Shown here one piece after another: positions 24,590-62,243 of a DNA stretch of 64,000 nucleotides (its first letter is position 1; each line of letters begins with the position of its first letter). The position numbers and the translations under genes were made by a program. The notes beneath the pieces are model-generated. The model did not search any database, had not been told where the DNA came from, and worked only from the letters and a program-made list of their open reading frames with translations. The stretch lies in the NCBI RefSeq assembly GCF_049060185.1, contig NZ_JBMEQO010000002.1; one strand, written 5' to 3'. The DNA comes from Nannocystis pusilla (GTDB taxonomy: Bacteria > Myxococcota_A > Polyangia > Nannocystales > Nannocystaceae).

Positions 24590-24660
24590 GTTCGTTCAAA
24601 CATGCCTGAAAGGACAGGCATCGACAGACATGGGCACAGGCACATGTCCTTGGGGACATC
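24590..24660. repeat. REP-like palindrome cluster (2-3 hairpins of the CTGTCC..GGACAG / CATGTCC..GGACAT family) between the PfkB kinase and mtnP genes.
   Basis: catgcctgaaaggacaggcat ... acatgtccttggggacatct. Confidence 0.7.
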
Positions 24661-25587
24661 TCACTCCGGCGCCTGCAGCAGGTGCCCCGCGATCAGGTCG
24701 AGGCGCTTGCGCGTCTCCGCCGGGATCCGCGTCGGATCGGTGATGAGCGCGTGCTGCAGCGCCCGCGGGTACGGCAGCTCCGCGGTCGACACCGGCAGCT
24801 CGGCGGCCACGCGGGCGATGAGCCGGCGCGACAGCGCCACGTTGGCCTTCAGCACCGCGATCACGGCCTCGACGCTGACCTCGCCCTCGCTCTGGTGCCA
24901 GCAGTCGTAGTCGGTGGCCAGCGCGACCAGGGCGTAGGCGATCTCGGCCTCGCGGGCGAGCTTCGCCTCGGGCAGCGCGGTCATGCCGATCACGTGCGCG
25001 CCCCACGAGCGGTACAGGTTGGACTCGGCGCGGGTCGAGAAGGCCGGGCCCTCCATCACCACGCAGGTGCCGCCGACGTGGACCCGGGCGCCCTCGGCCT
25101 CGGCCGCGCCCGCGACGCGGCGCGACAGCCCGGCGTCGACCGGGTCGCCCATCTGCACGTGCGCCACCAGCCCGCCGCCGAAGAAGGTCTGGGCGCGGCC
25201 GGCGGTGCGGTCGATGAACTGGTCGGGGATGACGACGTCGCCGGGCGCGATGTCCTCGCGCAGCGACCCGACCGCCGACACGCTGAGCAGGTGGGTCACG
25301 CCGAGCTGCTTGAAGCCGTGCACGTTGGCGCGGAAGTTGATCTCCGACGGCAGCAGCACGTGCCCGCGCCCGTGTCGCGGCAGGAACACCGCGCGCACCG
25401 GCGGCAGCCCGTCCGCCCGCGGCAGGAGCCCCACCGTGTAGACGTCGGACGGTCGTCCGAAGGGCGTCTCGAGCGCGACCTGCTCGACCTCTTCGAGCCC
25501 CTCGATCTCGTACAGCCCCGAGCCGCCGACGACTCCCAGCACCAGACGATCACGGGCCTCGGGCGAAGCAGGATGCGGGGTCGACAT
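24661..25587 (-). CDS. mtnP: S-methyl-5'-thioadenosine phosphorylase (intact, 308 aa, no frame change).
   Basis: VGGSGLYEI...FLPRHGRGH...MTALPEAKLAREAEIAYALVALATDYDCW, typical of MTAP/PNP family 2. Confidence 0.85.
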   Translation of the reverse strand: MSTPHPASPEARDRLVLGVVGGSGLYEIEGLEEVEQVALETPFGRPSDVYTVGLLPRADGLPPVRAVFLPRHGRGHVLLPSEINFRANVHGFKQLGVTHLLSVSAVGSLREDIAPGDVVIPDQFIDRTAGRAQTFFGGGLVAHVQMGDPVDAGLSRRVAGAAEAEGARVHVGGTCVVMEGPAFSTRAESNLYRSWGAHVIGMTALPEAKLAREAEIAYALVALATDYDCWHQSEGEVSVEAVIAVLKANVALSRRLIARVAAELPVSTAELPYPRALQHALITDPTRIPAETRKRLDLIAGHLLQAPE

Positions 25588-25630
25588 CGGCGGCGAGGAT
25601 ACCGGCGGCCCCCCGACGCGCCAAGCGCCG

Positions 25631-27242
25631 TTGCGCGCGACCCCTCACGCACGATACACAGCGGTCACGGCACCCGAGTTCCATCACGACCGCCGCGGCT
25701 GCGTCGCTGCCGGTCACCCCGTCACCGCAGCGGCCGCCATGCACGCGCTCGCGGCCGGGGGCAACGCGTTCGACGCCGTGCTCGCCGCGCTGATGGCCGC
25801 GTGTGTCGCCGAGCCGGTGCTCGCCTCGCCCGGCGGCGGCGGCTTCATCCTCGCGCTCCCGGCCGGCGGCGAGCCGCGGCTCTACGACGCCTTCGTGCAC
25901 ACGCCGCGCGTGCGCCGGCCGCAGGCCGAGGCCAACGCGCGCGAGGTGATCACCGACTGGGGCACCGCGCAGCAGGCCTTCCACATCGGGGTCGGCTGCG
26001 CCGCCACGCCGGGCCTCGTCGCCGGCATGTTCGCGGTCCACCGCGAGCTCGCGCGCCTGCCCATGCCCGTCATCGCCGCCCCTGCGGTGCAGGCCGCCCG
26101 CGACGGCATCGCAGTGTCGCCGTTCATGGCCTACCTCATGACGCTGGTGGCGCCGATCTACCTCGAGCTGCCGGCTGCCCGCGCGATCTTCGGCGATCCC
26201 GCGGCCGTGGAGGGCGGCGCGCCGACCCCGGTCAAGGCCGGCGGGCGCCTCGTCAACCCTGTCCTCGGGGACATGCTCGAGCAGCTCGCGCGCGAGGGCG
26301 AGGACCTGTTCTACCGCGGCGACGTGGCCGCCGCGATCGTCCGCCAGAGCCGCGAGGCCGGCGGCCACATCACCGCCGACGACCTCGCCGGCTACCGCGT
26401 GCAGGCCCGCGCCCCGCTGCGCCTGCGCTACCGCGACGCCACCCTCCTCACCAACCCGCCGCCGGCCGCCGGCGGCCTGATGATCGCCTTCGCCCTCGCC
26501 TTGCTCTCGGGACATGGCCTGAAGGACATGGGCTTTCAGACAGCCGAGCACGCGGCCCTGCTGGCCCGCGTCCAGGCCGAGACGGTGCGCGCGCGCGACC
26601 GCCGGCCCGCCGCGCGAGGGCGTCGAGGCGACCTGGCTCGGCGGCGACCTGCTGGCCGCCCACGCCGCGGCGCTGGCCGGCCCGCTGCGCAGCCGCGGCA
26701 CCACCCACGTCAGCGTCATCGACGCCGCCGGCAACGCCGCGTCCGCCACCGTCAGCAACGGCGAGGGCTGCGGCGAGATCGTCCCCGGCACCGGCATGAT
26801 GCTCAACAACATGCTCGGCGAGGACGACGTCAACCCGCCCGGCCCGCACGCCTGGCCGCTCGATCAGCGCCTGGCGTCGATGATGTCGCCGACCGCGATC
26901 GTCGGCGACGACGGCAGCCTGCTGGTGTGCGGCAGCGGCGGCTCGAAGCGGATCCGCACCGCCGTCCTCCAGGTCGTCTCCAACGTCCTCGACTTCGGCC
27001 TGCCCCTGCCCGCGGCGATCGCGGCCCCGCGGCTCCACGTCGAGGACGACCACGTCAGCTTCGAGGCCGGCCTCACCCCCGCCGCCGCCGAGACCCTCGC
27101 GGGCCTGTTCGCCCGCACCACCGCCTGGCCCGGCCTCAACATGTTCTTCGGCGGCGTCCACACCGTCCAGCGCGCCAAAGACGGCCGCCTGTCGGGCTTC
27201 GGCGACCCGCGCCGCGACGGCGTCTGCCTCGGCGGCGAGTGA
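25631..27242 (+). CDS. ggt: Gamma-glutamyltransferase family protein. One frame change near 26590.
   Basis: GHPVTAAAAMHALAAGGNAFDA... and the catalytic-Thr region GTTHVSVIDAAGNAASATVSNGEGCG...CGSGGSKRI. Confidence 0.8.
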
Positions 27243-27255
27243 GCGGAGCGGCCGC

Positions 27256-27450
27256 TGTTGGCATGTCGCCCGGGACATGCCCGTAAGCGCATGCCCCCTT
27301 GGACATGCCCTTTGACATGTCCCTCTCGACATGCCCCTCGGGCCAGCGCCGAGGCCGCCCTTCACCGCCTCTCGCGGCATGTCCCGCAGGACATGTCAGC
27401 GCTCTACCCGCGCAGATGTCCCATCGGACATGTCCTTCGCGCCACCATGC
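27256..27450. repeat. REP-like palindrome cluster (~7 units: GGGACATGCCC direct repeats plus CATGTCCCGCAGGACATG and GATGTCCCATCGGACATG hairpins) between convergent ggt and czcA. It overlaps the 3' tail of czcA.
   Basis: Read in the sequence. Confidence 0.7.
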
Positions 27451-30508: not shown

Positions 30509-30514
30509 CGATCC

Positions 30515-31682
30515 TCACTCCGACGGCAGCAGCAACAGGCCGCCGTCGATCACCACCCGCTCGCCGACCTTCGCCCCCTCCGCCAGCCCGAGCCACTCGC
30601 CGCTGCGCGCCCGATCCGCACCGCTCGCACCTCGAAGCGGCCCGGCCCGCGCTCGACCAGCACGACGTCGCCGCCGTCGCGGTGCAGCACCGCCGACTGC
30701 GGCACCGCCGGCATCGACGTCGTCGCCCGCGAGTGACGCACGCGGCCGAACATCTCCGGGCGCAGGCGGCCGTCGGGGTTCGGCAGCGCCGCCTGGACCT
30801 TGATCGTCCGCGTCTTCGGCTCGACGGTGTCGGCGATGCGCACCACCCGGGCCGCGAACGTCTCGCCCGGGTAGGCCGCAAGCTCGGTCTGCATCGACTC
30901 GCCGAGCGCGACGAAGCGGATCAGTTCTCCGGCACGTCGGCCGTCACCAGCACCGCGCTGAGGTCGGCGATCGTCATCAGCGGCTGGGCCGTGTCGGAGT
31001 GGAACTCGCCCGGCGCGACGTGCAGCTCGAGCACCTTGCCGGCGATCGGCGCGCGCACCGAGATCGTGTCGCGCCGATCGCCCGCGACCAGCCCGAGCAG
31101 CCCGAGGTGCCGGCGCGCCTGCTTGCGATCGGCCTCGCTGCGGACCACCGCCGCCCGGGCCTCGGCGTGGGCCGCATCGACGTTGTCGACCTCCTTGCGC
31201 GCCACCGCGTCGTGGGCGAAGAGCCCGTGGACGCGCTCACGATCCGCGGTGGCCTTGACCAGCCCGGCCCGCGCCGCCAGCACGTCGGCCTCGGACTGCT
31301 CGTAGTGGGCGATCGCCGCGTCGGCCTCGGGGCTGTCGAGCACCAGCAGCGCGTCACCGGCCGCCACGCGATCGCCCACGCGGACATCGACCTCGCGCAC
31401 GCGCCCGGTCACCGGCAGGAGCACGTGCGACAACCTGCCCGGATCGATCTCGAGCTGCGCCGGTGACACCACCTCGTCGGTCGACAGCTCGCGCGCAGTG
31501 ACCTCGCCGATCTTCAGGCTCGACAGCATCGGCGAGTCGGCTGGCAGCTCGATCTGCGGCGAACCGCCCGGCACCGCCGCCGGCGCCGACGCGGCCTCGC
31601 GCTGCGGCGTCCGCGGTCGACACGGCCCGAGCGAACCGATAAGCCACATCGCCATCCACCACCCGCGCGTGCTCACTGCCAA
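30515..31682 (-). CDS. czcB: RND membrane fusion protein (CzcB/HlyD family). One frame change.
   Basis: [12 protein letters not shown]..., then a hairpin/beta-barrel region, joined to [57 protein letters not shown] ribosome-binding site precedes the czcA start. Confidence 0.75.
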
Positions 31683-33049: not shown

Positions 33050-33310
33050 CTGGCTCTCGGGACATGCTCGTTCGGACAGCTCGAGGCCCCGGCCCGCCGC
33101 CGTTCATCCTCGACGGGTCACCCGCCTCCGCACCTATCTGGCCCGAAGGCCCGCGCTGCTCCCCGCGAGAGCCCGCGAGCACATGCCCCGAGGACACGCC
33201 CGTCTGGCGCCCCGCCTCGGCCGGCCTGCTCCACCGGACATGCCCCATGGAACATGCCCCTTGCGCATGTCCCCGAGCGCATGCCCTTTCAAACATGTCT
33301 CGCGCCCGTC
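33050..33310. repeat. REP-like palindrome cluster (~8 units) upstream of czcC.
   Basis: gggacatgctcgttcggacagctc; cggacatgccccatggaacatgccccttgcgcatgtccccgagcgcatgccctttcaaacatgtctc. Confidence 0.7.
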
Positions 33311-33335
33311 CGGCGCGCCGACCCGACCGCCCCGC

Positions 33336-34219: not shown

Positions 34220-35016
34220 GTCGTGTGGGGGATGTCCGAAAGGACAGGGCGGATCGGACCGGTGCGCGGCGCCGTCGCAGTCAGCAGGGCGCCTCGGGGG
34301 CGAGGGCCGGGCTGCGGGCAGGGCCGAGGGGGCGGCCCGTCCGGGCCCGCACAGGCGCGGTCGACCTCGACGAGGGCGAGCGACCAGTTGCGGGCGAAGC
34401 GGCGCGACATCCGGGGAAAACCGGCGCGAGTGTACAACACCTCCGCCCGCCGAGCGTCGCGCTGATCCGCGCCGGCGGCGCGCCGCCGGGCCCTCGCAGC
34501 CGCTGCACGGGCCGCTTCCGGCACCCTCGAGACCGACCGCCACCTCGCTGCAGCGCGCCGCCCCGCGTCCGGCTGACTGCGACGCCTTCGCGTTCGTCGT
34601 CGCGGCCCGATCGCAGTCGCAGGCTCTCGCGTCGACCTTCGCCCTGTCATCTCCCGTCGCGTCCGCCAGCCTCGTGCGACGAGCCTGAGGCCCGAAGCCC
34701 CGAGGTCGGCGCACGTGCACGACGATGGGCCCGGCGCGGCGGTCGCTGCCCCCGAACCGCAGCCGGTGGGCAGCGCCGTGGACCCACATCACGGCCGACA
34801 GCCGGGGAGGATCCCGGACACCTGCACTGCCGGCGATCGATCGCCGCGAGCACACCCCAGGCGGTCGACGTTTCGCCGCCAACATGGCAAAAGACGCCGT
34901 TTCAGCGCAGATCCGCCCGCTCGGCGCACCGGCGCCCGCACACCGCCTCGCTCCAGAACGGACTTCGTTCTAGCGTGCAGAACGGCCACGGCTGGTGTAG
35001 GTAAGCGAGACCAGGC

Positions 35017-36719
<1,703 letters not shown>

Positions 36720-38946: not shown

Positions 38947-39141
38947 AACCTGCCCCTTCGGCCAGCCAGCCGGGTCCGTCGCAACCTGCCCCTCCGGACA
39001 GCCAGCCGGGCCCTCCCAACCTGCCCCTCCGGCCAGCCAGCCAGCTTCACCCCAACCTGCCCCTTCGGCCAGCCCGTCTCAACCTGTCTCTCCGGACAGC
39101 GCGTCCCCCTCGTCAAAACCTGCCCCTTCGGCCAGCCAGCC
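38947..39141. repeat. Six tandem ~36-bp repeats (core AACCTGCCCCTYCGGMCAGCCAGCC) related to the REP-like palindrome family. In-frame they read as a Pro/Ala/Ser/Gln-rich linker (PAPSASQP-type) joining the TonB_C domain to the TBDR plug.
   Basis: The repeats are read in the sequence. Frame 0 reads EPAPSASQPGPSQPAPPDSQPGP. After a 1-nt shift the TBDR frame reads PSQPAPPASQPASPQPAPSASPSQPVSPDSASPSSKPAPSASQPEP and runs straight into the plug domain. Confidence 0.6.
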
Positions 39142-39148
39142 CGAGCCG

Positions 39149-41211
39149 GTGCTCGACGTCGCCGCGCGCAGCCGCCGGCCGCCGCCGCGGGCCGCCAGCG
39201 ACTTCGTGGTCGAGCGCGACGTCCTCGCCGCACCGCCGCGACAGAGCGCCGCCGACATGCTGAGCAGCGCCCCCGGCGTCTACGTCGCCCGGGCCGAGGG
39301 CGAGGCCGTCGCGCACGAGATCACCCTGCGCGGCTTCAACGCGGCGCACGGCCAGGACATCGAGATCACCGCCGGCGCCTTGCCGCTCAACCAGGTCTCG
39401 CACCTGCACGGCCAGGGCTACGCCGACCTCAACTGGATCGTCCCCGAGACCGTGCGATCGATCCGCGTCACCGAGGGCGTCTACGACCCGCGGCAGGGCG
39501 ACTTCGCGGTCGCCGGCAGCATCGACTTCGACCTCGCCGTCCCGCGCCGCGGCATCCAGCTGCGCAGCACCGGCGGCTCCTTCGCCACCTTCCGCCAGCT
39601 CGTCCTGTGGGCCCCCAAGGGCCAGGACGACGAGACCTTCGCCGCCGCCGCGGTCCGCCGCACCCGCGGCTTCGGCATGAACCGCGGCGGCCTCTCGGGC
39701 ATGGCCATGGGCCAGTTCGCCTTCTCGGCCGCGGGCGGCTGGCGCGGCAAGGTCCACGTCGCCGCCTACGCCGCGCGGGCCGGCCTCGCCGGCGTCCTGC
39801 GCCGCGACGACGTCGCCGCCGGGGCCGTCGGCTTCTACGACAGCTACGGCGACCCCTCGGCCAACAGTCAGTCCGCCTCGGCCGCGCGCGGCCACCTCCC
39901 TCGAGCTCGAGCGCCGCGGCGAGGGCGGGGCGGTCACCCGCATGGCCGTGTGGACCGCCCTCGTCGACTTCCACAGCCGCGAGAACTTCACCGGCTACAC
40001 CCAGCGCGGCGTCGTCATGCCGCAGTGGGTCGGCCGCGGCGACCTCATCGAGCAGCAGAACCGCGACTTCGGCGGCGGCATGCGCCTGTCCCATCGGACA
40101 GCCGGCTGGCGCCCCGCCCCGTGGTTCCACGCCGCCCTCGAGGTCGGCGCGGCCGCCCGAATCCACAACATCCAGCAGGCGCAGAACCTGCTGCAGGCGC
40201 CGCAGAACGAGACCTGGGACCGGCGCGTCGACGCCACCGTGCTCGCCAGCGACGTCGGCCTCTACGGCGACCTCGACCTCCGCTTCGGCAAGCGCGTGCG
40301 CCTGCGCGGCGGCGGCCGGGCCGACGTCCTCCACTACGACATCGACGATCGCCTCGGCAACTTCATCGCCCCCTACCAGATCGAGAGCCACCTCGTCGGC
40401 CACCGCCGCACCGCCACCGGCGTCGCCGCCGGCCCGCGCGTCAGCCTCGAGGTCGCGCCTGTCCCTTGGGTCAGCCTGTTCGCCGCCTACGGCCAGGGTT
40501 ACCGCTCGCCGCAGGCGCGCCAGCTCGACGAGGGCGAGCGGGCCCCGTTCGCCAAGGTCCACAGCACCGAGGGTGGCGTGCGCATGAGCCCGCTCGGCGG
40601 CCGCCTCCAGCTCAGCGCCGCCGGCTTCGCCACCTTCCTCGCCCAGGACCTCGCCTTCGACCCCGAGGAGGGCCGGCTCGAGAAGGTCGGTCCGACGCGG
40701 CGGGCCGGCGCCGCGGTCCAGCTCATCGCGCGTCCGCTGCCGTGGCTGGTCGCCGCCGGCAGCGTCACCTACGTCCACGCCGTCCTGCGCGCCCCGCCGC
40801 CGGCCACCGCCGAGAACCCCTCCCCGCCCTACGTCCCCGGCCAGCTGCTGCCCTACGTCCCGCCGGTGGTCGTGCGCGCCGACATCGGCCTCGACAAGGA
40901 CCTCGTCGAGCTCAAGGGTCGCCCGCTCGGCCTGCGCGTCGGCCTCGGCTACTCCTACCTGTCCCCGCGGCCATTGCCCTACGGACAGTTCGCCGACCCC
41001 GTCCACCTCCTCGACGCCAGCGCCGCCGTGCGCTGGTCGGTCGTCGAGGTCGGCGTCGAGGCCTTCAACCTGCTGGCGCGCCGCTGGGCCGCCACCGAGT
41101 ACAACTTCGTGTCCGACTGGGGCACCCGCCCGATCCTCCCTCCTGCCCGCCCGCCACTTCGCCGCCGGCCCCCCGCTCAGCGTCATGGGCACCCTCACTT
41201 TGCACTTCTAG
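39149..41211 (+). CDS. TonB-dependent outer-membrane receptor (plug + 22-strand barrel, ends ...TLTLHF). There is no signal peptide of its own at the annotated start, so it probably continues from 38581. At least 4 frame changes.
   Basis: Plug: DMLSSAPGVYVARAEGEAVAHEITLRGFNAAHGQDIEI. Barrel segments from ORFs 39149.. and 39942... C-terminal aromatic residue followed by a stop. Confidence 0.75.
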
Positions 41212-41271
41212 CCGCCTGTCCCTCCGCGCCTGCCCCTTCGCACCTGTTCATTTCACCCGGTCCTTTCGCGC

Positions 41272-42000
41272 ATGTCCCTCCGACCAGCCATGATCCTCCT
41301 GCTCTGCGCCGCCTGCGGCGCGACCGGCGAGCCGGCCTTTCAGGCCCCGCTGCGGGCGCGCGGGGCCGCGGCCGGGCTGGCCGTGGGTGCCTGGACAGTG
41401 ACCCTCACGCGGGCAGAAGTCGGCCTCGGCCCGCTCTACCTGTGCGCCACCGCGGCCGCCTCCTCCGAGCTGTGCGCCACCGCGGCCGCCGAGTTCGCGG
41501 CAGCCGCCCCCGTCGACCTGCTCGACCTCGACCCCCAGCCGCTCGGCGAGCTCGACGTCCTGCCCGGCCAGGTGCGCTCGGCCATGCTCGACTACGGCGT
41601 CACCTGGCTCAAGACGCAGGCCAAGCCGGGCGCCCAGGACGGCGCGCCGGGCGGGCGCGCGGCCCGGTTCGCCGGCACGGCTGTCTCTGCGGACATGTCC
41701 TTCGAGTTCACCGCCGACCTCGACGTCGCCCCCGTGCTCCGCGGCAGCCGCACCATCGAGGGCCTGCGGGTAGGCCCCTTCGACCTGGACGTCGGCGGCG
41801 CGCTCGACGTCACGATCGACGGCGCCGCCTGGTGGGCCGGCGTCGACTTCGACGCCCTCGCCGCGCTCGGCCCCGGCCCCCACGACCTCGCCGCCCTGGC
41901 CGCCGAAGATCCGGCCTCGCCCGCCGCCGACGCCCTGGCCGCCGTCCGCTTCGCCATGATCGCAGTCCCGCCGCGGTTCGCCTGGACCGCCGAAGAATGA
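41272..42000 (+). CDS. Lipoprotein of unknown function (242 aa, MSLRPAMILLLCAACGATG...), directly upstream of exbB.
   Basis: Intact ORF with a signal peptide. Confidence 0.6.
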   Translation: MSLRPAMILLLCAACGATGEPAFQAPLRARGAAAGLAVGAWTVTLTRAEVGLGPLYLCATAAASSELCATAAAEFAAAAPVDLLDLDPQPLGELDVLPGQVRSAMLDYGVTWLKTQAKPGAQDGAPGGRAARFAGTAVSADMSFEFTADLDVAPVLRGSRTIEGLRVGPFDLDVGGALDVTIDGAAWWAGVDFDALAALGPGPHDLAALAAEDPASPAADALAAVRFAMIAVPPRFAWTAEE

Positions 42001-42694: not shown

Positions 42695-43132
42695 TGGCCG
42701 GCCACAGCAGCGGCGACCCGGGCGGCATGATCGTCGGCATCAACGTCACGCCGATGGTCGACATCGTCCTGGTGCTGCTCATCATCTTCATCGTCACCGC
42801 CAAGATCATCGTCACCCCCGCGGTCGAGATGGACCTGCCGGAGGCCAGCACCGCCGGCGAGGTCCAGGTCGTCCTGTCGGTGATCGTCCCCGAGCGCGGC
42901 GCCACCCTCGTCGACGGCGAGCCGATCGCCGGCGACGACGAGCTCGTCACCCGCGCCGCGTCGGTGCGCGCCCGCAGCCCGCAGGTCCGCGCCGTCATCC
43001 ACGCCGACGGCGAGGTCCCCCACCGCCGCGTGATCGCCACCATCGACGCCCTCCAGCGCGGCGGCGTCTACCGCGTCGCCTTCGCCACCCTGTCCCCGGG
43101 CCCGCCCCCACCGGCCAGGAGGCGACGCCGTG
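42694..43132 (+). CDS. exbD: ExbD/TolR-family protein. Its ATG overlaps the exbB stop (TGATG). One frame change near the 3' end.
   Basis: MAGHSSGDPGGMIVGINVTPMVDIVLVLLIIFIVT...VQVVLSV.... Confidence 0.8.
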
Positions 43133-43564
43133 ACCCGGCCGTCGCATCACATGTCCTTCGGGACATCCCCCACCGCGCCCGACACGGCTCGTCACCTGTC
43201 CCTCGAGCCATCCTCCCTCCCGCTCGACCAGGCGCCCGCGCGAGCCCTGCCGCGAGCCCTCGCCCGAGCGAGCGCCGCCACGCCTCGTCACCTGTCCCTC
43301 GGACCATCCTCCGTCGCGCGAGCTCAGGCGCTCGCCCGAGCCCTCGCCCGAGCGAGCGCCGCCGCCGCCGCTCTCCACCTGTCCCTCGGGCCACCCTCGG
43401 TCGCACGAGCTCAGGCGTCCGCGCGAGCCCTGCGGCGAGCCCTCGCCACTGCGACTCGCCACCTGTCCCTCGGGCCATGCTCCCCCGCGCGAGCCCTGCC
43501 GCGCGCGAGCGCCGCCGCGCCTCACCTGTCTTTCAAGACATCCTCAGCGGAGGTCTGCGCGTGA
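43130..43564 (+). CDS. Candidate 144-aa Ala/Arg-rich repeat protein, translationally coupled between exbD and tonB. Five degenerate repeats, each starting RHLSLGP... and each carrying a REP-like palindrome (CACCTGTCCCTCGGGCCA).
   Basis: AGGAGG lies 7 nt before the GTG start. Its stop overlaps the tonB GTG (GTGA). The repeat periods are 96, 87, 84 and 63 nt, all multiples of 3. Confidence 0.45.
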   Translation: MTRPSHHMSFGTSPTAPDTARHLSLEPSSLPLDQAPARALPRALARASAATPRHLSLGPSSVARAQALARALARASAAAAALHLSLGPPSVARAQASARALRRALATATRHLSLGPCSPARALPRASAAAPHLSFKTSSAEVCA

Positions 43565-44392: not shown

Positions 44393-44460
44393 TCCCGCCT
44401 GCACTTCGAGACATGTCCTGAAGACCACTCGCACGTTCACACGTCGTCACCGCCCCGCCC

Positions 44461-44778: not shown

Positions 44779-44929
44779 CGCGCGTCCACGCGCCGCGCCG
44801 CGGCCCCGCGCTCACCTCTTCCGTTCACCTGTCCTTTCAGACAGGCCTCAAGCGCCGCCGCTGCGGCTCCCTGGCCCCACGGACCGCGGTTGACAACGCG
44901 ATCGCGCGGGCCGCAGACTGCGGATCGCC

Positions 44930-45623
44930 ATGGGGAAGCCGGCCACCGCGCTCGTCGTCGCGCTCCTGCTCGCCGCCTGCAAGTCGGAGCCCGGGGACGA
45001 GAGCACCGGCAGCGGCAGCGACGGCAGCAGCACGACCACGACCTCCGCCGCCACGACCCCGGGGCCCACCACCGCCGGGCCCTCCACCGCCGAGCTCACC
45101 ACCACGTCGACCACCTCCGTCGACACCGAGACCTCGACCACCGGCGTCGACGAGGCGCTGTGCGCCGACTACTGCGCCGACGTCATGACGAACTGTCTCG
45201 ACCCGCAGGCCCAGTACCCCAACGCCGACAGCTGCAAGCGCGCCTGCGCCAGCTTCCCCCGGCGCGCGTGGTGACGTCTCGGGCAACAGCTACGCCTGCC
45301 GCCGCTACCACACCGACGCCGCCGCCATGGACGCGGCGACCCACTGCGTCCACGCCGGCCCGAGCGGCGGCGGCGCCTGCGGCGACAACTGCGACGGCTT
45401 CTGCGCCCTCGCGGTGTCCGTCTGCCCGGGCGAGCACCCGAGCCTCGATGCCTGCCTCGCCACCTGCGCCGGCTTCACCGACGACGAGAAGTTCGACACG
45501 GGAGACGTCGCCGGCGACACCCTCGCCTGCCGCCTCTACCACCTCACCGTCGCGGCCACCGGCGAGACCGACGCCGCGGTGCACTGCCCGCACACCCTCC
45601 AGGACTCCCCGCCCTGCATGTAA
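44930..45623 (+). CDS. Cys-rich lipoprotein, paralogue A (MGKPATALVVALLLAACKSEP; Thr-rich linker; two Cys-rich repeats ending ...HCPHTLQDSPPCM). One frame change.
   Basis: The conserved Cys pattern is shared with 45675..46429. Confidence 0.55.
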
Positions 45624-45674
45624 AGACATGTCCCTTCAACCATGCCGGTTCACGCCGCCACGCAAGGCCCACGC

Positions 45675-46429
45675 ATGACCTCTCGCGCCTACCTTCCCTC
45701 CTCGTTACCCTCCTGTTCCCCGCCTGCTTCGACGACTCGCGCGGTGACGACACCGGCTCGACCGTCAGCACCACGGTCATGACCACGACCGCGACCCAGG
45801 TCAGCGGCGACGTCACGACCACCACGACGACCACCACCTCCACGACCGACTGGACCTCCGGCGAGCCCACCACCTCGACCACCACCAGCGACGTCGATCC
45901 GCTCACCAGCACCAGCGACCCGACCACCGGCACCTCGAGCACCGGCGGCGACACCAACGTCGGCTGCCAGATGTACTGCGCGGCGATGATGGGCAGCTGC
46001 ACCGGCGCCAACGCCCAGTACCCGAGCAACGAAAGCTGCCTCGGCGCCTGCGGCGGCCTCCCGCCGGGCTCGCCGGGCGAGACCTCCGGCAACTCGCTGT
46101 CGTGCCGGGCCTACCACGCCGGCATGGCCTCGATCGATCCGGGCGTCCACTGCATCCACGCCGGCCCCAGCGGCGCCGGCGCGTGCGGCCAGAGCTGCGA
46201 GGGCTTCTGCGCCATCGCCACCTCGATCTGCCCGACCGAGCACCCGAGCCCCGGCGACTGCATGGCCACCTGCGCCAACTTCATGGACACCGAGCCGTAC
46301 AACACCGAGGACGCCGCCGGCAACACCCTCGCCTGCCGCCTCTACCACCTCACGATCGCCGCCACCGGCCCGGCCGAGGCCCAGGTCCACTGCGGTCACA
46401 CCATCGAGGCCTCGCCGCCCTGCATGTGA
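45675..46429 (+). CDS. Cys-rich lipoprotein, paralogue B (MTSRA/LPSLLVTLLFPACFDD...; poly-Thr linker; ...HCGHTIEASPPCM). One frame change in the signal peptide.
   Basis: About 60% identical to paralogue A across the Cys-rich domain (ACRLYHLT(I/V)AATG, HC(I/V)HAGPSG(A/G)GACG). Confidence 0.55.
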
Positions 46430-46495
46430 CCCGAAGGGCAGGTCCTCCGGGGCATGTCCCAGCGGGCAGACCCTTCAGGACATGCTCCCGAGGCC
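46430..46495. repeat. REP-like palindrome cluster (3 units) between convergent genes.
   Basis: gggcaggtcctccggggcatgtcccagcgggcagacccttcaggacatgctc. Confidence 0.6.
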
Positions 46496-46595
46496 AGGTT
46501 CCGGCGCCCGCTCAAGACCGCGGAGCGCCCCAGTACCGAAGGCCGCGGCCGCCGCTCCACGGAGCGTCGGCACGCGGCCTTCGTCACTCCCGCCC

Positions 46596-48765: not shown

Positions 48766-49063
48766 CGCGTCTCCTTGGGCCGGGACACGGGCCAGAATGA
48801 CAGCCTCGTGCCTCGGCGTGCAGCCCCACAACGCCGCCCCCGTGCCCGCGCTGACACCCCGCGGACACGGCCCGTGAGCGCCCCGGCGCGGCCGCGACCG
48901 CCGGGCGGTTCCGCCCCGGGCGCCGCGTCGCGCTCGCTGTTCACATGTCCCGAAGGACAGCTCATCGCTCCACCGCCGAACGCCGAACAAACTCACCGCC
49001 GCCCCGCCGCAGCCCCTGGCGTCCCGGCGGGGCTCGCGTCTACCATCCGAGGCTGCTGCGTCC

Positions 49064-50700: not shown

Positions 50701-51396
50701 GTTCGAGGCGCGGGCGCGCCTGGCCGCATTCCGCAGCGCCGAGTCGCCCGACCGCGCGATCGCCGACCGAGTCCTCGCCGCGCTCGAGCAGCGCGTCGAG
50801 GAGGGCGGCGGCGACGATCTCGACGACGAAGCCCCTCTCGCTCGCGCCTCGCCCCGCGGGTCCTCGCCGGCTTCGCCTTGGCGGCCGGCGTCCTGCTGGC
50901 CCTGACCTGGGCCGTCATGAAGAGCGGCGAGGCGCCGCAGACCCACGTCGCAGCCCCGTATCAGGCCCGCGAGGGCGACGCGGTTCAGACCGCCGAGTCC
51001 GTCCAGCGTCCCGATCCTGCCCGCGCCTCCGCGCCCGATCCGGCGCCCGAGGTCGCACCCGAGGCGCCTACCACCGACAAGCCTGTCCCTGCGGACACCT
51101 CCAAGACACGCCGCCCTGCGCGTGAGGACACCGTCGCCGCCGAGGTCGACCTGCTGCGGCGGGCCAAGCTGGCCGCGCCTGCCGAGCGCCTGCAGTTGAT
51201 CGAAGAGCACGCCCGGCGGTTCCCCGGCGGCATTTTGGCCGCCGAGCGCAGCCTGCTCGAGATCGAGGCCCGCTGCGCCCTCGGGCAGCGCGACGCCGCC
51301 CGCGAGTTGGTCGCCAGCTTCCCGCGGCGTTTTCCGGGCTCGCCTCTGGTCGACCGGGCGGCCACGCTCTGTAATGGATCGGCCGCGCAGCCCTGA
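50672..51396 (+). CDS. Putative anti-sigma factor. It overlaps the 3' end of the ECF gene and has a single TM (AAGVLLALTWAV). One frame change.
   Basis: Position and topology, plus ORFs 50672.. and 50878.. joined. Confidence 0.5.
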
Positions 51397-51408: not shown

Positions 51409-52990
51409 GTGAGACGACCCGTGCCCACTTCCCGAACGCACCGCAGCCCGATCGCCTCCGCGGCGAGGGCCTGCCTCGCCGTGGTTCTCAGCTGTCCTTT
51501 CGTACATCTCGGCTGCATCCTCGATCCCAGCCCGCTGGGCGAGCTCCCGGGCGACACCGACGGCGCTGACACCATCAGCATCGACACCCTCGTCGTCACC
51601 TCGCAGCACGTCGACGACACCACCGTCGGCCCGCTGCCGACCACCACCGGCGAGCCGGGCACCACCGGCGACCCGCCTGACGGTACCACCGGCGAGCCCG
51701 TCACCACCGGCGACGATCCGCCGCCGGAGACCGGCTGCATCGACGGCGGCGCCTGCGAGCAGCTCGACGTCCTGTTCGTCATCGACAACTCCGGCACCAT
51801 GGGCGAGGAGCAGAGCCAGCTCGCCGACAGCTTCCCTGCCTTCGTCTCGCTGCTGCGCGGCCTCAGCGACGCCAACGGTCAGCTCGTCGGCGCCGACGTG
51901 CACATCATGGTCACCACCACCGATGTGCCGCACCCGCTGTGTACCCCGTTCGAGAAGCCCGACTACGACGCCGCCGACGGCGAGCCGATCGACACCCCGT
52001 GCACCGACCGCCTCGCGCGGTTTACCGGCCTCGGCGCCGATCCGCCGGTGATGTCCGAGATCTGCACCTCGCGCTGCGCCGAGGCTGCCCCTCGGTCCCC
52101 ACCGATCCGTTCATTCGCTTCAGCCCCACCAGCCACAACGTCATCGACCCTGACGGCATGGGCGACCCCGCGGCCGACGCCCTCGCCTGCATCGGCCCGC
52201 AGGGCATCGACGGCTGCGGCATGGAGTCGCCGCTAGAGGCCATGCGGCGCGCGCTCGACCTCGAGGCGCGGTGGAACATCGGCGAGCGGCCCTTCTTGCG
52301 CCCCGGCGCTCCGCTGGCGGTCGTCATCGTCACCGACGAGACCGACTGCTCCACCCTCAACTTCGCCTACTTCGACCCCAAGCTGCACGACGACCCCGAG
52401 TTCAGCAAGTACTGGCCGTCCCACCCGAGCAGCGGCCAGCGGACCGAGCCCACCAGCGCCGTGTGCTGGAACGCCGGCATGACCTGCGCCGACGACGACG
52501 ACGACGGCGAGTACGAGTGGTGCATGTCCGAGGACAAGCACGTCCTCCAGCCCGTCACCCGCTACACCGAGGCCCTCGCCGACCTGCGCCACCTCCACGG
52601 CAAGGAAGTCGTCATGCTCGTCCTCGGCGGCGTCCCCCAGGTCACCGAGCACAACCAAGCCCCTCCGTTCGAGCCCCTCGCCGGCGGCGTCGACGCCCTC
52701 GTCTACCGCGACTGGCAGCCCGAAGACATCCTCCCGGGCGACACCGACACCCTGACGACAAGCAGTTCGAGTTCGGCATCGGTCCCGGCTGCGTCGGCCC
52801 CGCCGGCCAGGCCGTCCCGCCCGGGCGGATCCAGGAGGTCTGCCAGGCGCTCGACATCCCCGACGACCCCGACACCGCCGTCAACGAACGCGCCATGCGC
52901 TGCTGCATCGAGTCCGTCTGCGACAGCGACTACACCCCGCCCTCGGCTGCCTCGCCGGCATGCTGCAGCCGACCCTCCACGCCATGCCCT
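51409..52990 (+). CDS. VWA-domain lipoprotein with a Thr/Gly/Pro-rich linker and many Cys residues. 2 frame changes.
   Basis: LAVVLSCPFVHLGC...; VWA: LDVLFVIDNSGTMGEEQSQLADSFPAFV...; ...VIVTDETDCS.... Confidence 0.55.
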
Positions 52991-53100
52991 GAAGGACATG
53001 CTCTAGAGGCCATGTCCTATACGACATGGTCTCTCCAACATTCCTCATGGGACATGCCTTTATCGCCAGGTTCCCCGCCCCCGCGCATGTCCCTCCGCAC
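52975..53100. repeat. REP-like palindrome cluster (~5 units).
   Basis: ccctgaaggacatgctctagaggccatgtcctatacgacatggtctc...catgggacatgcc...gcgcatgtccctccgc. Confidence 0.65.
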
Positions 53101-53422
53101 GCGAGCGAGCGGCGCTGGAGGCATGCCTCCCCGCCGACCGCCCGGCCGGATCGCCGCGCTCCATCATCCGACTCGACGAGGAGCGCCCGCAGCGGGTCGC
53201 AGCCTCGTAAACATTTTGCTCACCGTTCAGCGACGCGCGCAGCGTCGCCCGTGAACAGGCGGAAGCCGACGCGGGCGCACGGGCAGCAAGTCGCGCCACG
53301 GCAAGCGCCGGCACGCTCGACGCCTCGCGCACCTCGCGGCAGCCGCCCAGGCCGGACAGGGGCAGGCAACGGCGACCTCGCTGTTGGCGACAGCCAGCCC
53401 TCCCCGCGCGCAGATGCCACGC

Positions 53423-53706
53423 CGGTAATGACGCGAGAAAGCGCCTGTTCGGCGGCCAGCCCTGGCCGCCGAACAGGCGCCCCATGACCTGCCCCAAAAG
53501 ACACTTCCCCATCGGAGCCCACGACGGCGAGGCGGCCTCTCACGGCTGCAGCCGTGCCAGGGGTCCGGGGAAGGGCCGGCCGCGATTAGAGACCCGATGG
53601 GTGCGAGGCACGAGCGCCCATCGGGTCGGTTAACTCGCGGCCGGACCTTCCCGGACCCCCGCGAGGCGCAGTCGGCAATCGCGAACCGACCCTGCCGAGC
53701 TCACCC
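53423..53706 (-). repeat. Copy 2 of the ~270-nt structured element, at the 3' end of the alpha/beta-hydrolase gene.
   Basis: Hairpins 53441..53480, 53541..53556, 53590..53626 and 53634..53664. See copy 1 at 23366..23640. Confidence 0.55.
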
Positions 53707-58307: not shown

Positions 58308-58320
58308 AAGGAGCACGAGT

Positions 58321-59703
58321 CATGAAGCGCCATCAACTCAGCCGTCGCACCCTGCTCCGCGGCGTCGCCGGGGGCACCTCCGTCGCGCTCGCGCTCCCGC
58401 TGCTCGAGGCCATGCTCAACTCGAACGGCACCGCCCACGCCGACGGCACCGCCCTGCCGCGACGCATGATCACCTGGCACTTCGGCAACGGCGTCGCCCT
58501 CGTCGACCCCGCCGACGTCGGCAAGGGCAACCGCTGGGCCCCCGCCGAGACCGGCCCGAACTACCCGCTGACCCCGCAGCTCGCCGCGCTCGAGGGCGTG
58601 CGCGACTACTGCAACCTCCTCACCGGCTTCGACATCAAGGCCTCGTCGAAGCACCGCCGCGGCCACCACGACGGCTGCGCCGGCTTCTTCTCCGGCTACC
58701 CGTTCATCGAGCTGCCGCACGCCGAGAACAGCTACTCGTCGAAGTTCGGCGGCCCCTCGATCGACCAGGTCGCCGCCGCCGCCGTCGGCGCTCAGACCTT
58801 CCTGCCGTCGCTGCAGCTCGCGGTGTCGAAGCGGGTCATCGGCGGCGAGGGGCCGACCCTGCAGTACCTCTCGCACAAGGGCCCCGACCAGCCGCTGCCG
58901 CCCTTCTTCAACCCGCAGGAGGCGTTCGCCGCCCTGTTCGAGAGCTTCGTCCCGCCCGACGACCCGACCAAGGGCCCGCGCGTCGACATCCTCGACGCCG
59001 TGCGCGAGGACGTGAAGGCGCTCAAGCTGCGGGTCGGCAGCGCCGACAAGCTCCGCCTCGACGCCCACCTCGCCAGCGTCGAGCAGATCAAGAAGCAGAT
59101 CGAGACCCTGCCGCCGGCCTGCACCTGCCGGGCATGCCGATCGAGACCAACATGGACATCGACGGCGCCGAGCCGATCGAGCTCGTCAACGCGGCCATGG
59201 TCGACATCATCATCGAGGCGTTCCGCTGCGACCTCACCCGGATCGTCAGCATCCAGTTCTCGGGCTCGGTCGGCTACCACATCTTCAAGAGCCTCGGCCA
59301 CGCCAAGGGTCACCACGACATGACCCACGACACCGCCGACAACGAGGCGGTCGACCAGTGCACGATCAAGACCGTCGAGTGCTTCGCGGTCCTGCTCAAC
59401 CGCCTCAAGGAGACGGTCGAGGGCGACGGCAACCTGCTCGACAACTCGTGCGTGATCCTCGGCAGCGACGCCGCCTCGGGCTACACCCACAGCGTGTTCG
59501 ACCAGCCCTGCATCGTCGCCGGACGCGGCGGCGGCACCCTGCGCTACCCCGCCGAGCACTACCACTCGCCCTCGAGCGAGAACACCTCCGACATCCTGCT
59601 CGCCTGCCTGCAGTCGGTCGTGCCGGAGGCCACCGAGGTCGGCGCCACCAACGCCGACGGCGACGGCTACTCCAACACCCCGTGCGCCGCCCTCCTGGCC
59701 TGA
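58321..59703 (+). CDS. DUF1552-family protein with a twin-arginine signal peptide (usual partner of DUF1592 proteins). One frame change.
   Basis: MKRHQLSRRTLLRGVAGGTSVALALPLL...; ...HHDMTHD.... Confidence 0.7.
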   Translation, partial: HEAPSTQPSHPAPRRRRGHLRRARAPAARGHAQLERHRPRRRHRPAATHDHLALRQRRRPRRPRRRRQGQPLGPRRDRPELPADPAARRARGRARLLQPPHRLRHQGLVEAPPRPPRRLRRLLLRLPVHRAAARREQLLVEVRRPLDRPGRRRRRRRSDLPAVAAARGVEAGHRRRGADPAVPLAQGPRPAAAALLQPAGGVRRPVRELRPARRPDQGPARRHPRRRARGREGAQAAGRQRRQAPPRRPPRQRRADQEADRDPAAGLHLPGMPIETNMDIDGAEPIELVNAAMVDIIIEAFRCDLTRIVSIQFSGSVGYHIFKSLGHAKGHHDMTHDTADNEAVDQCTIKTVECFAVLLNRLKETVEGDGNLLDNSCVILGSDAASGYTHSVFDQPCIVAGRGGGTLRYPAEHYHSPSSENTSDILLACLQSVVPEATEVGATNADGDGYSNTPCAALLA

Positions 59704-59950
59704 AAGACATCTGAACCTGTCCGCAAGGACAGACCGTGCGGCGAGGTCGGCTCACCCGGCCTCGCCGCAGTCGCGACGTCGGGCCGACGCTCGCGACCGC
59801 CGCCGCCGCGCATCACCTGTCCCGCAGGACAGGCTCCGATCGACCGCGCGCGTCGCCGAGCGCTCCTGACCTGCCCTCAAGGACAGGCACCGACCCTCTC
59901 TTCCGAGCGCGCCCCCCTCCGCACCGCCTGACGTGGAGGACATCTGACCG
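59700..59950. repeat. REP-like palindrome cluster (4-5 hairpins, for example CTGTCC-GCAA-GGACAG at 59717..59732).
   Basis: Read in the sequence. Confidence 0.75.
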
Positions 59951-60720: not shown

Positions 60721-60860
60721 TCGCCTGTCCGAAGAGACAGCCCGCCTGGAGCGCCGAGCGCCTGTCCGCAGCGACAGCTTAGCCGCGAACCGCCTGTCTG
60801 AAGAGACAGCTTCTCACAGACAGTAGGGACACCGTCCGCATCTGTCCGAAGAGACAGCCA
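60721..60860. repeat. Array of 4 hairpins CGCCTGTCCGAAGAGACAGC (CTGTC-N7-GACAG) with 12-28-bp spacers between roadblock (+) and HxlR (-). REP/BIME-like, not CRISPR.
   Basis: Periods 37, 32 and 48 bp. No cas genes. Confidence 0.75.
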
Positions 60861-60931
60861 CCTCGCAGCCGAAACGCTCCGCCTCGCTCGCGCTCGCCGG
60901 CGGCCGCCGTCCTCGGCTCACCGCGCCCCGC

Positions 60932-61312
60932 TCACTCCGCGCTCGCCGCCTCCCGCCGCGCCGACCAGCGCAGCAGCGAATCGAGGGTCGGGCACAGCGA
61001 CTGGCCCCAATCGGTCAGGCGGTATTCGACGCGCGGAGGTACCTCGCCGAACACCTCGCGCTGCACGAGTCCGTCGCTCTCGAGCCGGCGCAGCTGCTGC
61101 GCCAGCATCTTCTGCGACACCTCCGGAATGGCGCGTTCGAGCTCCGAGTAGCGCAGCACCTTGCCGCCGAACAGGTTGAACAAGATCCGCAGCTTCCAGC
61201 GCCCCTCGAGCAGCGCCAGCGCCTCGCTCACCGCCTCGGCCGCCGCTTCCGGCGTCAGCAGCTCGGACTTACCTGCGGGTGAGTGGCTGACTTTTTCGTG
61301 CGTACTTGTCAC
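60932..61312 (-). CDS. HxlR-family (MarR-like winged-helix) transcriptional regulator, divergent from the SDR gene.
   Basis: GRWKLRILFNLFGGKVLRYSELERAIPEVSQKMLAQQLRRLESDGLVQREVFGEVPPRVEYRLT. Confidence 0.8.
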   Translation of the reverse strand: MTSTHEKVSHSPAGKSELLTPEAAAEAVSEALALLEGRWKLRILFNLFGGKVLRYSELERAIPEVSQKMLAQQLRRLESDGLVQREVFGEVPPRVEYRLTDWGQSLCPTLDSLLRWSARREAASAE

Positions 61313-61399
61313 TCCACCAGACTAGTCCCATCTTCGCGGTCCGAGCAATCGGCGGCGGCGAACGACGCGCCGCGCGTGCGCTCGCCCGGAGACTGACCT

Positions 61400-62200
61400 A
61401 TGAGCCAGGCAACGCCTCTCTTCTACGACCCCGCGATTCACCGGCAAGCGCGTCCTCGTCACCGGCGGCACGCAGGGCATGGGCGCCGCGATCGTGCGCC
61501 GGCTCGCCGCCGGCGGCGCCTCGGTCGCCACCACCGCGCGCTCCGCCTTGCCCGAAGGACAGGAGCCGGCCCTGTTCGTGCAGGCCGACATCTCCACCCG
61601 CGAAGGCGCCGAGCGGGTCGTCCGCGCCGTGACCGACGCCTTCGGCGGCCTCGACATCCTCGTCAATAATGCCGGTGGTTCGACCGCTCCGGCGGCGGCG
61701 CCCTCGCCCTCGACGACGACCAGTGGCGCCACGAGCTCGACCTCAACCTGCTCGCCGCCGTCCGCTTCGACCGCGCCTTCTTGCCCGGCATGGTCGCCCA
61801 GCGCTACGGCGTCATCCTCCACGTCTCGTCGATCCAGCGGCGCATGCCGCTCTACGAGTCCACCCTCGCCTATGCCGCGGCCAAGGCCGCCCTCAGCACC
61901 TACAGCAAGGGCCTCGCCAAGGAGTTCGGCCCCCAGGGCGTGCGCGTCAACAGCATCGCCCCCGGCTACGTCGAGACCGCCGCCGCCCACGCCCTCGTCG
62001 TCCGCCTGGCCGCCGAGGCCGGCACCGACGAGGCCACCGCGCGCAACGGCCTCATGACCTCGCTCGGCGGCATCCCGATCGGCCGCCCCGGCCGGCCGGA
62101 GGAGGTCGCCGAGCTCGTCGCCTTCCTCGTCTCCGACCGCGCCGCCTCGATCCACGGCAGCGAGACCACCATCGACGGCGGCACCGTCCCGGTCGTGTAA
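61400..62200 (+). CDS. Short-chain dehydrogenase/reductase (SDR). 2 frame changes.
   Basis: KRVLVTGGTQGMGAAIVRRLAAGGASV...LVNNAG...; YAAAKAALSTYSKGLAKEF (YxxxK). Confidence 0.75.
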
Positions 62201-62207
62201 CGACATG

Positions 62208-62243
62208 TCCTTCGAGCATGTCGCCTGCGACATGCTCGAAGGA
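62208..62243. terminator. Perfect 16-bp inverted repeat TCCTTCGAGCATGTCG-cctg-CGACATGCTCGAAGGA between convergent SDR and ALDH genes. It contains the CATGTC motif of the repeat family.
   Basis: Read in the sequence. Confidence 0.6.

Follow-up and report, generated by a model that had tools for sequence, protein, structure and literature searches.

A dense, probably REP-like family of very short palindromes in Nannocystis and its occurrence in coding sequence

The repeats and their surroundings

The window analysed here is a 64-kb stretch of the genome of Nannocystis pusilla (contig NZ_JBMEQO010000002.1), and the subject of this analysis is a family of short palindromic repeats within it, of the form TGTCC-N4-GGACA. 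The first 22 kb carries long signalling genes (an FHA-sigma54 activator, CheR, a PAS kinase and a GAF kinase). Further on lie, among others, an OEP-HlyD-AcrB operon, a Ser/Thr kinase, a TonB-dependent receptor (TBDR) and the genes exbB, exbD and tonB. Three orthologous Nannocystis loci of 20.7 kb (L001-L003: N. punicea FL3, L001; N. pusilla Na p29, L002; and N. radixulma) and a number of related and outgroup loci were used for comparison. The window kinase is 100% identical to an N. pusilla protein, and ExbB (42005-42694) is 98% identical to that of N. pusilla Na p29, 96% to that of N. punicea FL3 and 94% to that of N. radixulma.

Copies of the repeat occur in 5' leaders, in gaps between cistrons, at 3' ends, between convergent genes, at start codons and inside open reading frames (ORFs). 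They are listed below, with the strand where one was assigned.

22716..22729: single degenerate copy (TGTCCccggGGCCA) with 1 mismatch
24590..24660: small cluster between a pfkB-like and a PNP gene (both minus strand), with the exact copy cATGTCCttggGGACAT and the variant hairpin ATGCCTgaaaggacAGGCAT
26260..26273: exact copy within the coding region of gamma-glutamyltranspeptidase (GGT)
27256..27445: seven-copy cluster between the convergent GGT (plus) and AcrB-type (minus) genes; several units abut at 14 nt, and the AcrB ORF extends through the last two with its C-terminal tail
33050..33310: at least five degenerate copies upstream of the OEP-HlyD-AcrB operon
34233..34246, minus strand: single exact copy, 13 nt 5' of the ATG of a minus-strand signal-peptide gene (MKHATRPSRVLSLL..)
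36359..36411, plus strand: pair of exact copies at a distance of 39 nt, which encode EPVPxDT in the linker at the C-terminus of the Ser/Thr kinase and are conserved in four species
38947..39141, plus strand: six units of 27-36 nt (aaCCTGCCCCTTCGGCCAGCC) encoding a PAPSASQP linker from the TonB_C domain to the Plug/barrel of the TBDR
40087..40100, plus strand: exact copy in the conserved TBDR barrel (RLSHRT) with a rare ACA codon, present in four species
41212..41286, plus strand: three to four degenerate copies from the TBDR stop to the next gene, the last copy giving the start of that gene (ATG TCC CTC CGA CCA, MSLRP..)
43130..43564, plus strand: exbD-tonB spacer array of six copies in a single codon phase (..H L S L G P..)
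44414..44427: degenerate copy just 3' of tonB
44830..44843: single copy between convergent genes, kept in three species, with its best fold on the minus strand (CCUGUCUGAAAGGACAGG, -12.3 kcal/mol)
45617..45645: degenerate copies that directly follow the stop codon of the first gene in a pair of tandem paralogues
46427..46496: about five abutting 14-nt units right after the stop of the second paralogue
48946..48959, minus strand: single exact copy, kept in four species as the flanks diverge; in L001 and L003 its variants allow G-U pairing on the minus strand
51084..51130, plus strand: exact copy together with a degenerate one, encoding KPVPADT, in a position conserved in four species
52975..53101: three to four copies at the end of gene 51939-53006
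59696..59942: five-copy cluster 3' of the DUF1552 gene, whose TGA lies inside the loop of the first, degenerate copy
60726..60856, minus strand: four copies between convergent genes, three of them with TGTCC..AGACA, which is fully paired (G-U) on the minus strand only
62203..62248: three abutting 14-nt units between convergent genes, which jointly fold into one long perfect hairpin (-30.9 kcal/mol, z = -8.8)

Every cluster named in the initial annotation of this DNA, from 24590-24660 through 60721-60860, holds copies of the repeat, and so do the single sites named there.

When compared with Pfam models and with the relatives, several window genes are split between frames, namely those for AcrB, GGT, PfkB, OEP, HlyD, ExbD, DUF1552 and the fusion of TonB_C with the TBDR. 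The apparent frameshift sites are at 27617-27640, 26500-26530, 23957-23963, 32150-32244, 30510-30560, 43095-43125, 59130-59330 and 38350-39150. These are probably indel errors of the source assembly; otherwise many of the genes would be pseudogenes. As window frames alone are unreliable, all arguments about reading frames given below are based on the relatives. One candidate feature, a tonB stop in the loop of the copy at 44414, was dropped as an artefact of these frameshifts; in L002 tonB stops about 30 nt earlier.

Definition and enrichment of the motif

In the window, 13 exact copies of TGTCC-N4-GGACA were found where dinucleotide-preserving shuffles gave an expectation of 0.21. With up to two mismatches there were 87 copies (26.3 expected). 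The frequency of the motif is thus well in excess of chance, although that of the bare core GTCC-N2-8-GGAC is not (20 versus 18.6 expected). About 55-60 copies stand above background, which bears out the dense family of about 45 palindromes described initially. They are located past 22 kb, i.e. in 42 kb of sequence, at a density of about 1.3 per kb and nearly all in stretches of low coding potential.

A loop of three to six nucleotides had been proposed; this has to be corrected to a fixed length of four. All stems reaching TGTCC/GGACA enclose a 4-nt loop, with a 2-nt loop at 52525 as the sole exception. When the left arm alone was used as seed (C[A/C]TGTCC, either strand), the partner arm appeared at spacing 4 alone among the spacings 2-9. 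The short form of the unit is approximately C[A/C]TGTCC-N4-GGACA[T/G]G, a hairpin-forming repeat of 14-20 bases. A position matrix from 104 copies of four species gave the consensus [A/G]C[C/A]-TGTCC-[C/T]T[T/C/G][C/G]-GGACA-[T/G], with information limited to about 20 nt. The unit measures about 18-20 nt, and its variable 4-nt loop is usually CTTC, CTCG or TTCG. The CATG flank, which had initially been considered as a possible recognition site of a RAYT-like transposase or as a methylation site, is found in only about half of the copies; the remainder carry CCTG.

Within arrays, units either abut at 14 nt or ride on longer duplicated units. Abutting units with a common CATG are present at 27318/27332, 27417/27431, 33051/33065, 46427/46441/46455 and 62203-62248. 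The junction palindrome GGACATGTCC was considered as the true unit and rejected, as it occurs only twice.

Distribution in the window

The repeat is mainly extragenic: 62 of the 85 matches fall into the 11.9 kb of low-coding sequence past 22 kb, a set that includes the two translated arrays. This sequence holds 11 exact, 19 one-mismatch and 32 two-mismatch copies, compared with 0, 0.55 and 7 expected from a Markov model of the entire low-coding sequence (19 kb). In the 45 kb of coding-like sequence the corresponding numbers are 2, 7 and 14, with 0.05, 1.1 and 17 expected. Hence density is not equal inside genes and between them; there is a strong excess in low-coding sequence and a modest but real enrichment in genes. 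That the repeats lie between genes and at operon ends, as noted initially, holds for their concentration in spacers. It does not cover the copies in 5' leaders (34233), at a start codon (41272), within operons and in conserved coding sequence (40087).

The near-absence of the repeat from the first 22 kb was confirmed. Seven matches were found there, none of them exact, which corresponds to chance even within the 7.2 kb of low-coding sequence of this part.

Conservation and turnover among relatives

Exact copies were also found in the orthologous 20.7-kb loci, with four in N. pusilla Na p29, eight in N. punicea and ten in N. radixulma. Related uncultured lineages, the orthologues of which are 47-77% identical, have them as well (two in L009, four in 7.3 kb of L012, one each in L014, L015 and L016). 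In 113 kb of other Myxococcota and a Stenotrophomonas (L004-L008, L010, L011) there were none. Because the motif occurs in Nannocystis and in related uncultured lineages but not in the other Myxococcota, the family is, as judged from these loci, specific to the Nannocystis lineage yet older than the named species.

Single copies persist whereas clusters vary. The window and its relatives are 84-96% identical, and the alignment breaks exactly at the clusters, which differ between species in both length and copy number. The region 33050-33310 measures 351 nt in the window and 490 nt in N. pusilla Na p29; the region 46400-46600 measures 201, 299, 136 and 125 nt in the four species. The single copies at 34233, 44830, 48946 and 51084 have kept their position in three or four species with variable loops and diverged flanks, and the one at 34233 is kept in all four Nannocystis species with different loops. 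Such orthologous copies are not independent observations. Whole array units (27 nt, 58 nt) are found among the indels of at least 10 nt relative to L002 and L001. These alignments show that arrays expand and contract by unit duplication, with no evidence of current transposition.

Predicted folding and the question of terminators

Good copies are predicted to fold into a stem of 5-8 bp with a tetraloop at -6 to -17 kcal/mol (-17.1 kcal/mol for 27372-27401). The only symmetric composite among the arrays is 62203-62248. Rfam 15 gave no match at gathering score across the whole window, and a tRNA scan found nothing.

It had been suggested that the copies act as terminators. If they were ordinary intrinsic (Rho-independent) terminators, this would account for copies and composites that are located between convergent genes or just past stops (27256-27445, 44830, 46427, 59696, 60726, 62203). 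However, no T-run follows any of the copies, and a terminator scan called none of these hairpins; the scan gave 1 and 3 sites per 20 kb where 2.6 and 4.1 were expected. Moreover, many copies are found in 5' leaders, at start codons, between coupled cistrons, elsewhere in operons and inside ORFs, and generic terminators do not share one common stem sequence. Terminators of the canonical, U-tract type are thus not supported, and we consider this explanation highly improbable.

The orientation of copies relative to transcription was rejected as evidence. CCTGTCC occurs 25 times and GGACAGG 13 times; in the spacers, CCTGTCCC occurs 12 times and its complement once. The C/T-rich bias of loops and flanks on the plus strand follows the local C-richness of the spacers. 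As it tracks the general C-richness of their plus strand, this strand bias was not read as an orientation signal. Such a signal also fails at 33050-33310, where plus-oriented copies lie within a minus-strand unit.

Relation to REP and BIME elements

The most probable interpretation in our view is that the repeats are very short interspersed palindromes, similar to repetitive extragenic palindromic (REP) sequences and bacterial interspersed mosaic elements (BIMEs), which are present in Nannocystis and its nearest uncultured relatives and have repeatedly been recruited into coding sequence. A lineage-specific REP-like family had been proposed from the window alone, and the enrichment, the concentration in spacers and the lineage restriction support it. 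The fixed geometry, the persistence of single copies, the turnover of arrays and the recruitment into coding sequence are observed as well. As in the REP/BIME elements of Enterobacteria and Pseudomonas (including the REPINs with their Y1 transposases, the REP-associated tyrosine transposases or RAYTs), the palindromes are short and imperfect, reach a high local copy number, are found mainly in extragenic transcribed spacers both singly and clustered, and have a lineage-specific consensus; orthologous single copies persist and clusters vary. Each good copy would form its stem and tetraloop on mRNA or on transiently single-stranded DNA. The stems could then serve as small structural punctuation, for example in 3'-end protection or as processing barriers between cistrons, and not as intrinsic terminators. 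Copies may originally have been seeded by a Y1/RAYT-type enzyme, by gene conversion or by another route.

Several observations weigh against this interpretation. The unit of about 14-20 nt with its fixed 4-nt loop is shorter than classical REPs. The 5' GTAG typical of RAYT-associated REPs is absent, and [A/G]C[C/A] precedes the stem instead. Unlike BIMEs and REPINs, the arrays consist mostly of direct repeats, often abutting at 14 nt, and not of alternating inverted pairs. No mobilising enzyme was found among the proteins scanned; of a genome of 12-13 Mb these were 50 window ORFs, together with 2 L001 ORFs, and none had a Pfam match to Y1_Tnp. Among the indels mentioned above there was neither a clean single-copy insertion nor a target-site duplication. 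More than half of the copies are degenerate with an unpaired stem position (TGTCC..GGCCA, TGCCC..GGCCA) and cannot form the full stem. Compensated double changes were found in 3 of 34 two-mismatch copies (TGTCT/AGACA twice, TGTCG/CGACA once) where about 1.3 were expected, which is no more frequent than chance. Single changes compatible with G-U pairing are found for both strands and do not consistently follow the sense strand. As compensated changes are rare and G-U-compatible changes fall on both strands, the data do not demonstrate that the hairpin as such is under selection. The left arm and the loop are better conserved than the right arm, which could mean a sequence-specific signal instead of a structural one. 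Finally, the Nannocystis-lineage DNA compared (about 150 kb) represents approximately one syntenic neighbourhood, so that abundance across the genome is an extrapolation, and the split into coding and low-coding sequence comes from a home-made codon-usage mask of coding potential in a window with many frameshifts. The motif is also unlike REP sequences in being enriched in coding sequence via rare codons and in its host, a myxobacterium with 72% GC.

Alternatively, the palindromes could be sites for an abundant dimeric DNA-binding protein, such as a global regulator or nucleoid-associated protein, for which the arrays would serve as cooperative platforms. An inverted repeat of 5+5 bp around a fixed 4-bp spacer of free sequence has classic operator geometry, stem mismatches are uncompensated, single copies near start codons and in leaders are conserved across species, and the motif is held in coding sequence at the cost of rare codons. 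Yet the density of the repeat, together with arrays of 3-11 copies downstream of convergent genes and in ORFs, is unlike a regulon. The copy number of arrays is hypervariable between close species, there is no fixed distance to gene starts, and no candidate binding protein was identified. We therefore regard protein-binding sites as unlikely and prefer REP/BIME-like elements. Features of miniature inverted-repeat transposable elements or of Correia-type elements (a unit of 100-300 bp, terminal inverted repeats, target-site duplication) were not found; conservation does not extend past about 20 nt. In the literature searched, no description of REP-like repeats in Nannocystis or other myxobacteria was found.

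The array between exbD and tonB

One recruitment into coding sequence was seen between exbD and tonB. In L001-L003, ExbD ends with ..QEA(A/T)P at the TGA of ccGTGAcc. In the window an indel near 43095-43125 shifts exbD out of frame. Its frame then stays open to 44421, which suggested an ExbD-TonB fusion; this was rejected in view of the indel and of the relatives, all of which end exbD at the GTGA. From this GTGA to the GTGA of tonB the distance in the four species is 431, 737, 293 and 314 nt, in each case 2 mod 3. A spacer ORF starts with the GTG overlapping the exbD stop (GTGA) and ends with the TGA overlapping the GTG of tonB. It is open in all four Nannocystis species with lengths of 98-246 codons. 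An ORF at 43130-43564 that is translationally coupled to exbD and tonB had been predicted initially, and this stands.

All 27 motif copies of the four spacers are in one codon phase (CTG TCC CTC GGG CCA, i.e. LSLGP, or MSxGT), and each of the 13 different distances between copies is divisible by three. In contrast, length differences of other clusters are mostly not multiples of three. The spacer peptide shows no conservation beyond the motif-encoded xLSLGP/MSxGT, and the G+C content of its third codon positions (GC3) is 0.76-0.83.

In the outgroup loci the spacer is missing. In L005, L012/L013, L014, L015 and L018 exbD and tonB overlap by 4 nt, and in L004 they are 9 nt apart. Since these six loci have overlapping or closely adjacent genes, the spacer is, by comparison of the loci, an insertion at an ancestral GTGA overlap and not a part of the ancestral protein. 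Other relatives differ in what they carry here. L015 has a single exact copy in frame in codons 4-8 of tonB (VTAPVPKDMSL). L016 has a spacer of 90 nt with one copy; this spacer is read in a different frame, straight into and in frame with TonB. In L017 the spacer of 113 nt (2 mod 3) is open and ends on the overlapping TGA, with its copies in mixed phases; it is flanked (951-1145) by a perfect 24-nt direct repeat of the junction, comprising the Shine-Dalgarno sequence, N7, GTGA and the first tonB codons. In Nannocystis, too, both junctions share GGAGG-N7-GTGACCCGGCC (VTRP..), in the window at 43112-43141 and 43545-43572. As the junction is repeated at both ends of the array, the tonB start region appears to have been tandemly duplicated.

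Copies may thus have entered just past the start codon of tonB, whereupon the junction was duplicated and the array grew. Selection would have kept the frame in which ribosomes are led from the stop of exbD to the start of tonB, with gains and losses of units all in multiples of three. A tentative interpretation, to which we give somewhat less than even weight, is that the array in the 4-nt exbD/tonB overlap has been selected as a translated bridging frame, the content and length of which drift freely as long as the frame and the GGAGG-N7-GTGA junctions are kept, and that, beyond this array, genes retain the motif at the level of nucleotides (rare CCT, ACA and GGG codons), which would imply a function or a drive at the level of the nucleic acid that overrides codon preference.

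Alternatively, the spacer ORF could encode a genuine, functional repeat protein of the Ton system. Its open, start/stop-coupled frame in four species, the conserved GGAGG 7 nt before the GTG, the common codon phase of all copies and their spacing would fit this as well. On the other hand, nothing in its sequence is conserved except the motif-encoded peptide, its length varies more than twofold, and its GC3 is below that of real genes (>0.9). A search of 5.8 billion proteins gave no homologue at E <= 1e-3, so that a protein family was rejected. Six related loci have the same operon but lack the ORF, and the differently framed spacer of L016 and the mixed phases in L017 also speak against such a protein. 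A functional repeat protein is less likely than the bridging frame, and we consider it decidedly unlikely.

The linker of the TonB-dependent receptor and other coding copies

In L001-L003 one stop-free frame runs from WRFEPARR..VKIRVPF through a (Q/E)PAPS(A/T)S repeat to VLDVAARSRRPPPRAASDF. In N. punicea it is a single ORF (L001:6435-9089, corresponding to about 38570-41211 of the window) with TonB_C at 55-123, Plug at 216-320 and the barrel of a TonB-dependent receptor at 442-839. The array at 38947-39141 was thus correctly recognised as a linker joining TonB_C to a TBDR. The window frame is broken, with one unit of 35 instead of 36 nt and an in-frame TGA at 38945. Hence, for both this and the exbD-tonB array, the proposed in-frame translation applies to the relatives, where the frames are open, but in the window itself both are interrupted by frameshifts.

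The linker DNA unit agrees with the repeat in its flank, its left arm and its loop. Of the Pro codons of the linker 47-54% are CCT; this codon accounts for 3% of them elsewhere in the gene and for 3.8% in confident window genes. The linker of L015, the receptor of which is 70% identical, is built from the same unit (CACCTGTCCCTTCGACCAGCC). Because of this shared unit, the recruitment of the repeat into the TBDR linker is either old or continually renewed. As to whether the repeat segments are ancestral protein sequence, the evidence for this linker is mixed, since a Pro-rich linker with the same DNA unit is already present in L015. The architecture of an N-terminal TonB_C, a Pro-rich linker and Plug is also kept in L015 (916 aa).

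Copies in other coding sequence were counted in confident ORFs (GC3 at least 0.88), with the expectation taken from synonymous-codon shuffling. There were 2-3 exact copies per locus (0.02-0.1 expected) and 3-7 one-mismatch copies (0.7-1.2 expected). The phase cCT GTC Ccn nnG GAC Acn (PVPxDT) is common to the TBDR linker, the C-terminal linker of the kinase (36359, 36398) and the copy at 51084. The copy at 40087 is ancestral protein sequence and not an insertion, and the copies in L012 read LSPGT and LSAGT in alignable protein sequence. The repeat is thus sometimes exonised, as had been assumed, and it has been recruited into Pro-rich linkers, N- and C-terminal tails and the exbD-tonB ORF. Exonisation in the sense of an added in-frame peptide is seen for the exbD-tonB spacer and the tonB copy of L015; the TBDR linker already exists in L015 and the 40087 copy is ancestral. 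The coding copies suggest that the motif is constrained or driven at the nucleotide level, and a model of purely selfish insertion offers no explanation for this.

Such a drive could act on the sequence itself, either as a transformation or recombination bias like that of the DNA uptake sequence (DUS) of Neisseria or as a repair or methylation bias at CATG, so that copies are not inserted at all and inverted pairs serve as hairpins in addition, which is the case for DUS pairs in Neisseria. This would account for copies that arise in place in conserved protein with rare codons (RLSHRT in the TBDR; LSPGT and LSAGT in L012) and for the lack of insertion polymorphisms. It would also fit the absence of the motif from the first 22 kb, which has a lower GC content, as expected of recently acquired DNA. 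However, the concentration in spacers and the abutting 14-nt arrays are atypical of uptake sequences, the half-site comprises merely 5-7 nt, and CATG flanks only about half of the copies. To our knowledge, no uptake specificity is known for Nannocystis. Sequence drive alone is in our opinion very unlikely, and REP/BIME-like elements with secondary recruitment remain the preferred reading.

The coding copies also invite comparison with other repeat families. Like Rickettsia palindromic elements, the Nannocystis repeat lies in frame within protein genes and contributes peptide segments. Those elements, however, are about 100-150 bp long and insert as a whole into many unrelated ORFs, whereas the Nannocystis units of about 18-36 nt give rise to Pro-rich linkers when tandemly duplicated, or occupy a gap between two cistrons. 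With the Neisseria DUS and the Haemophilus uptake signal sequence the repeat shares a frequency of about one per kb, inverted pairs that are hairpins after genes, and genic copies in preferred reading frames that are maintained against codon preference. It differs from these asymmetric words of 9-12 nt, which are scattered singly, in its 14-nt tandem arrays and strong concentration in spacers, and there is no evidence of uptake specificity. The cyanobacterial HIP1 (GCGATCGC) is likewise a very short, highly iterated and lineage-specific palindrome that also occurs in genes. Yet HIP1 is an uninterrupted 8-mer, linked to methyltransferase sites and distributed evenly through genes, whereas the Nannocystis motif is interrupted and concentrated in spacers and arrays.

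Myxobacterial genomes are very large and GC-rich, and their intergenic repeat content is undescribed in the literature searched. Nannocystis produces natural products, and a repeat present about once per kb throughout the genus would provide ATG codons and open frames that influence gene calling, besides having effects on assembly and operon models. The lineages compared can be arranged as stages of a selfish or structural repeat becoming coding, from no spacer through one in-frame tonB copy and a spacer of 90-113 nt to frame-preserved arrays of 290-740 nt. This series is a natural test of whether translational coupling alone maintains an ORF of otherwise free sequence. The repeat-built Pro-rich linker of the TonB_C-TBDR fusion is a second example of coding recruitment.

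Other observations

Copies of the CATG type repeatedly coincide with called or likely start codons, with the ATG in or directly after the stem (L009 7155-7170, L012 3335-3353, and 41272, 36912 and 48945 in the window). This could mean sequestration of start codons or could have misled gene callers.

The tandem paralogues 45013-45621 and 45820-46427 are about 71% identical (cross-alignment), and both end with ..PCM, immediately followed by copies of the motif. Their orthologues in L012 are annotated PF28386 (BfoA_C).

Within the signalling region, the stretch 6000-14000 has a GC content of 66-69% and contains low-coding segments of about 2 kb (6461-8551, 12064-14233) among signalling genes, with zero copies of the repeat. 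It may be more recently acquired DNA. In the metagenomic relative L010, a phage-type integrase, an rve-family integrase/transposase and a DNA_pol_A_exo1 gene (5905-8806) adjoin the kinase orthologue; this looks like a mobile-element insertion unrelated to the repeat.

The window also contains two perfect palindromes at 23368-23407 and 53441-53480, both in low-coding stretches, with 19-nt arms and an identical 16-nt apex (CGGCCAGCCCTGGCCG); two matches were found compared with 0.12 expected. Their outer stems are unrelated to each other yet fully complementary, which looks like a second hairpin class with covarying stems.

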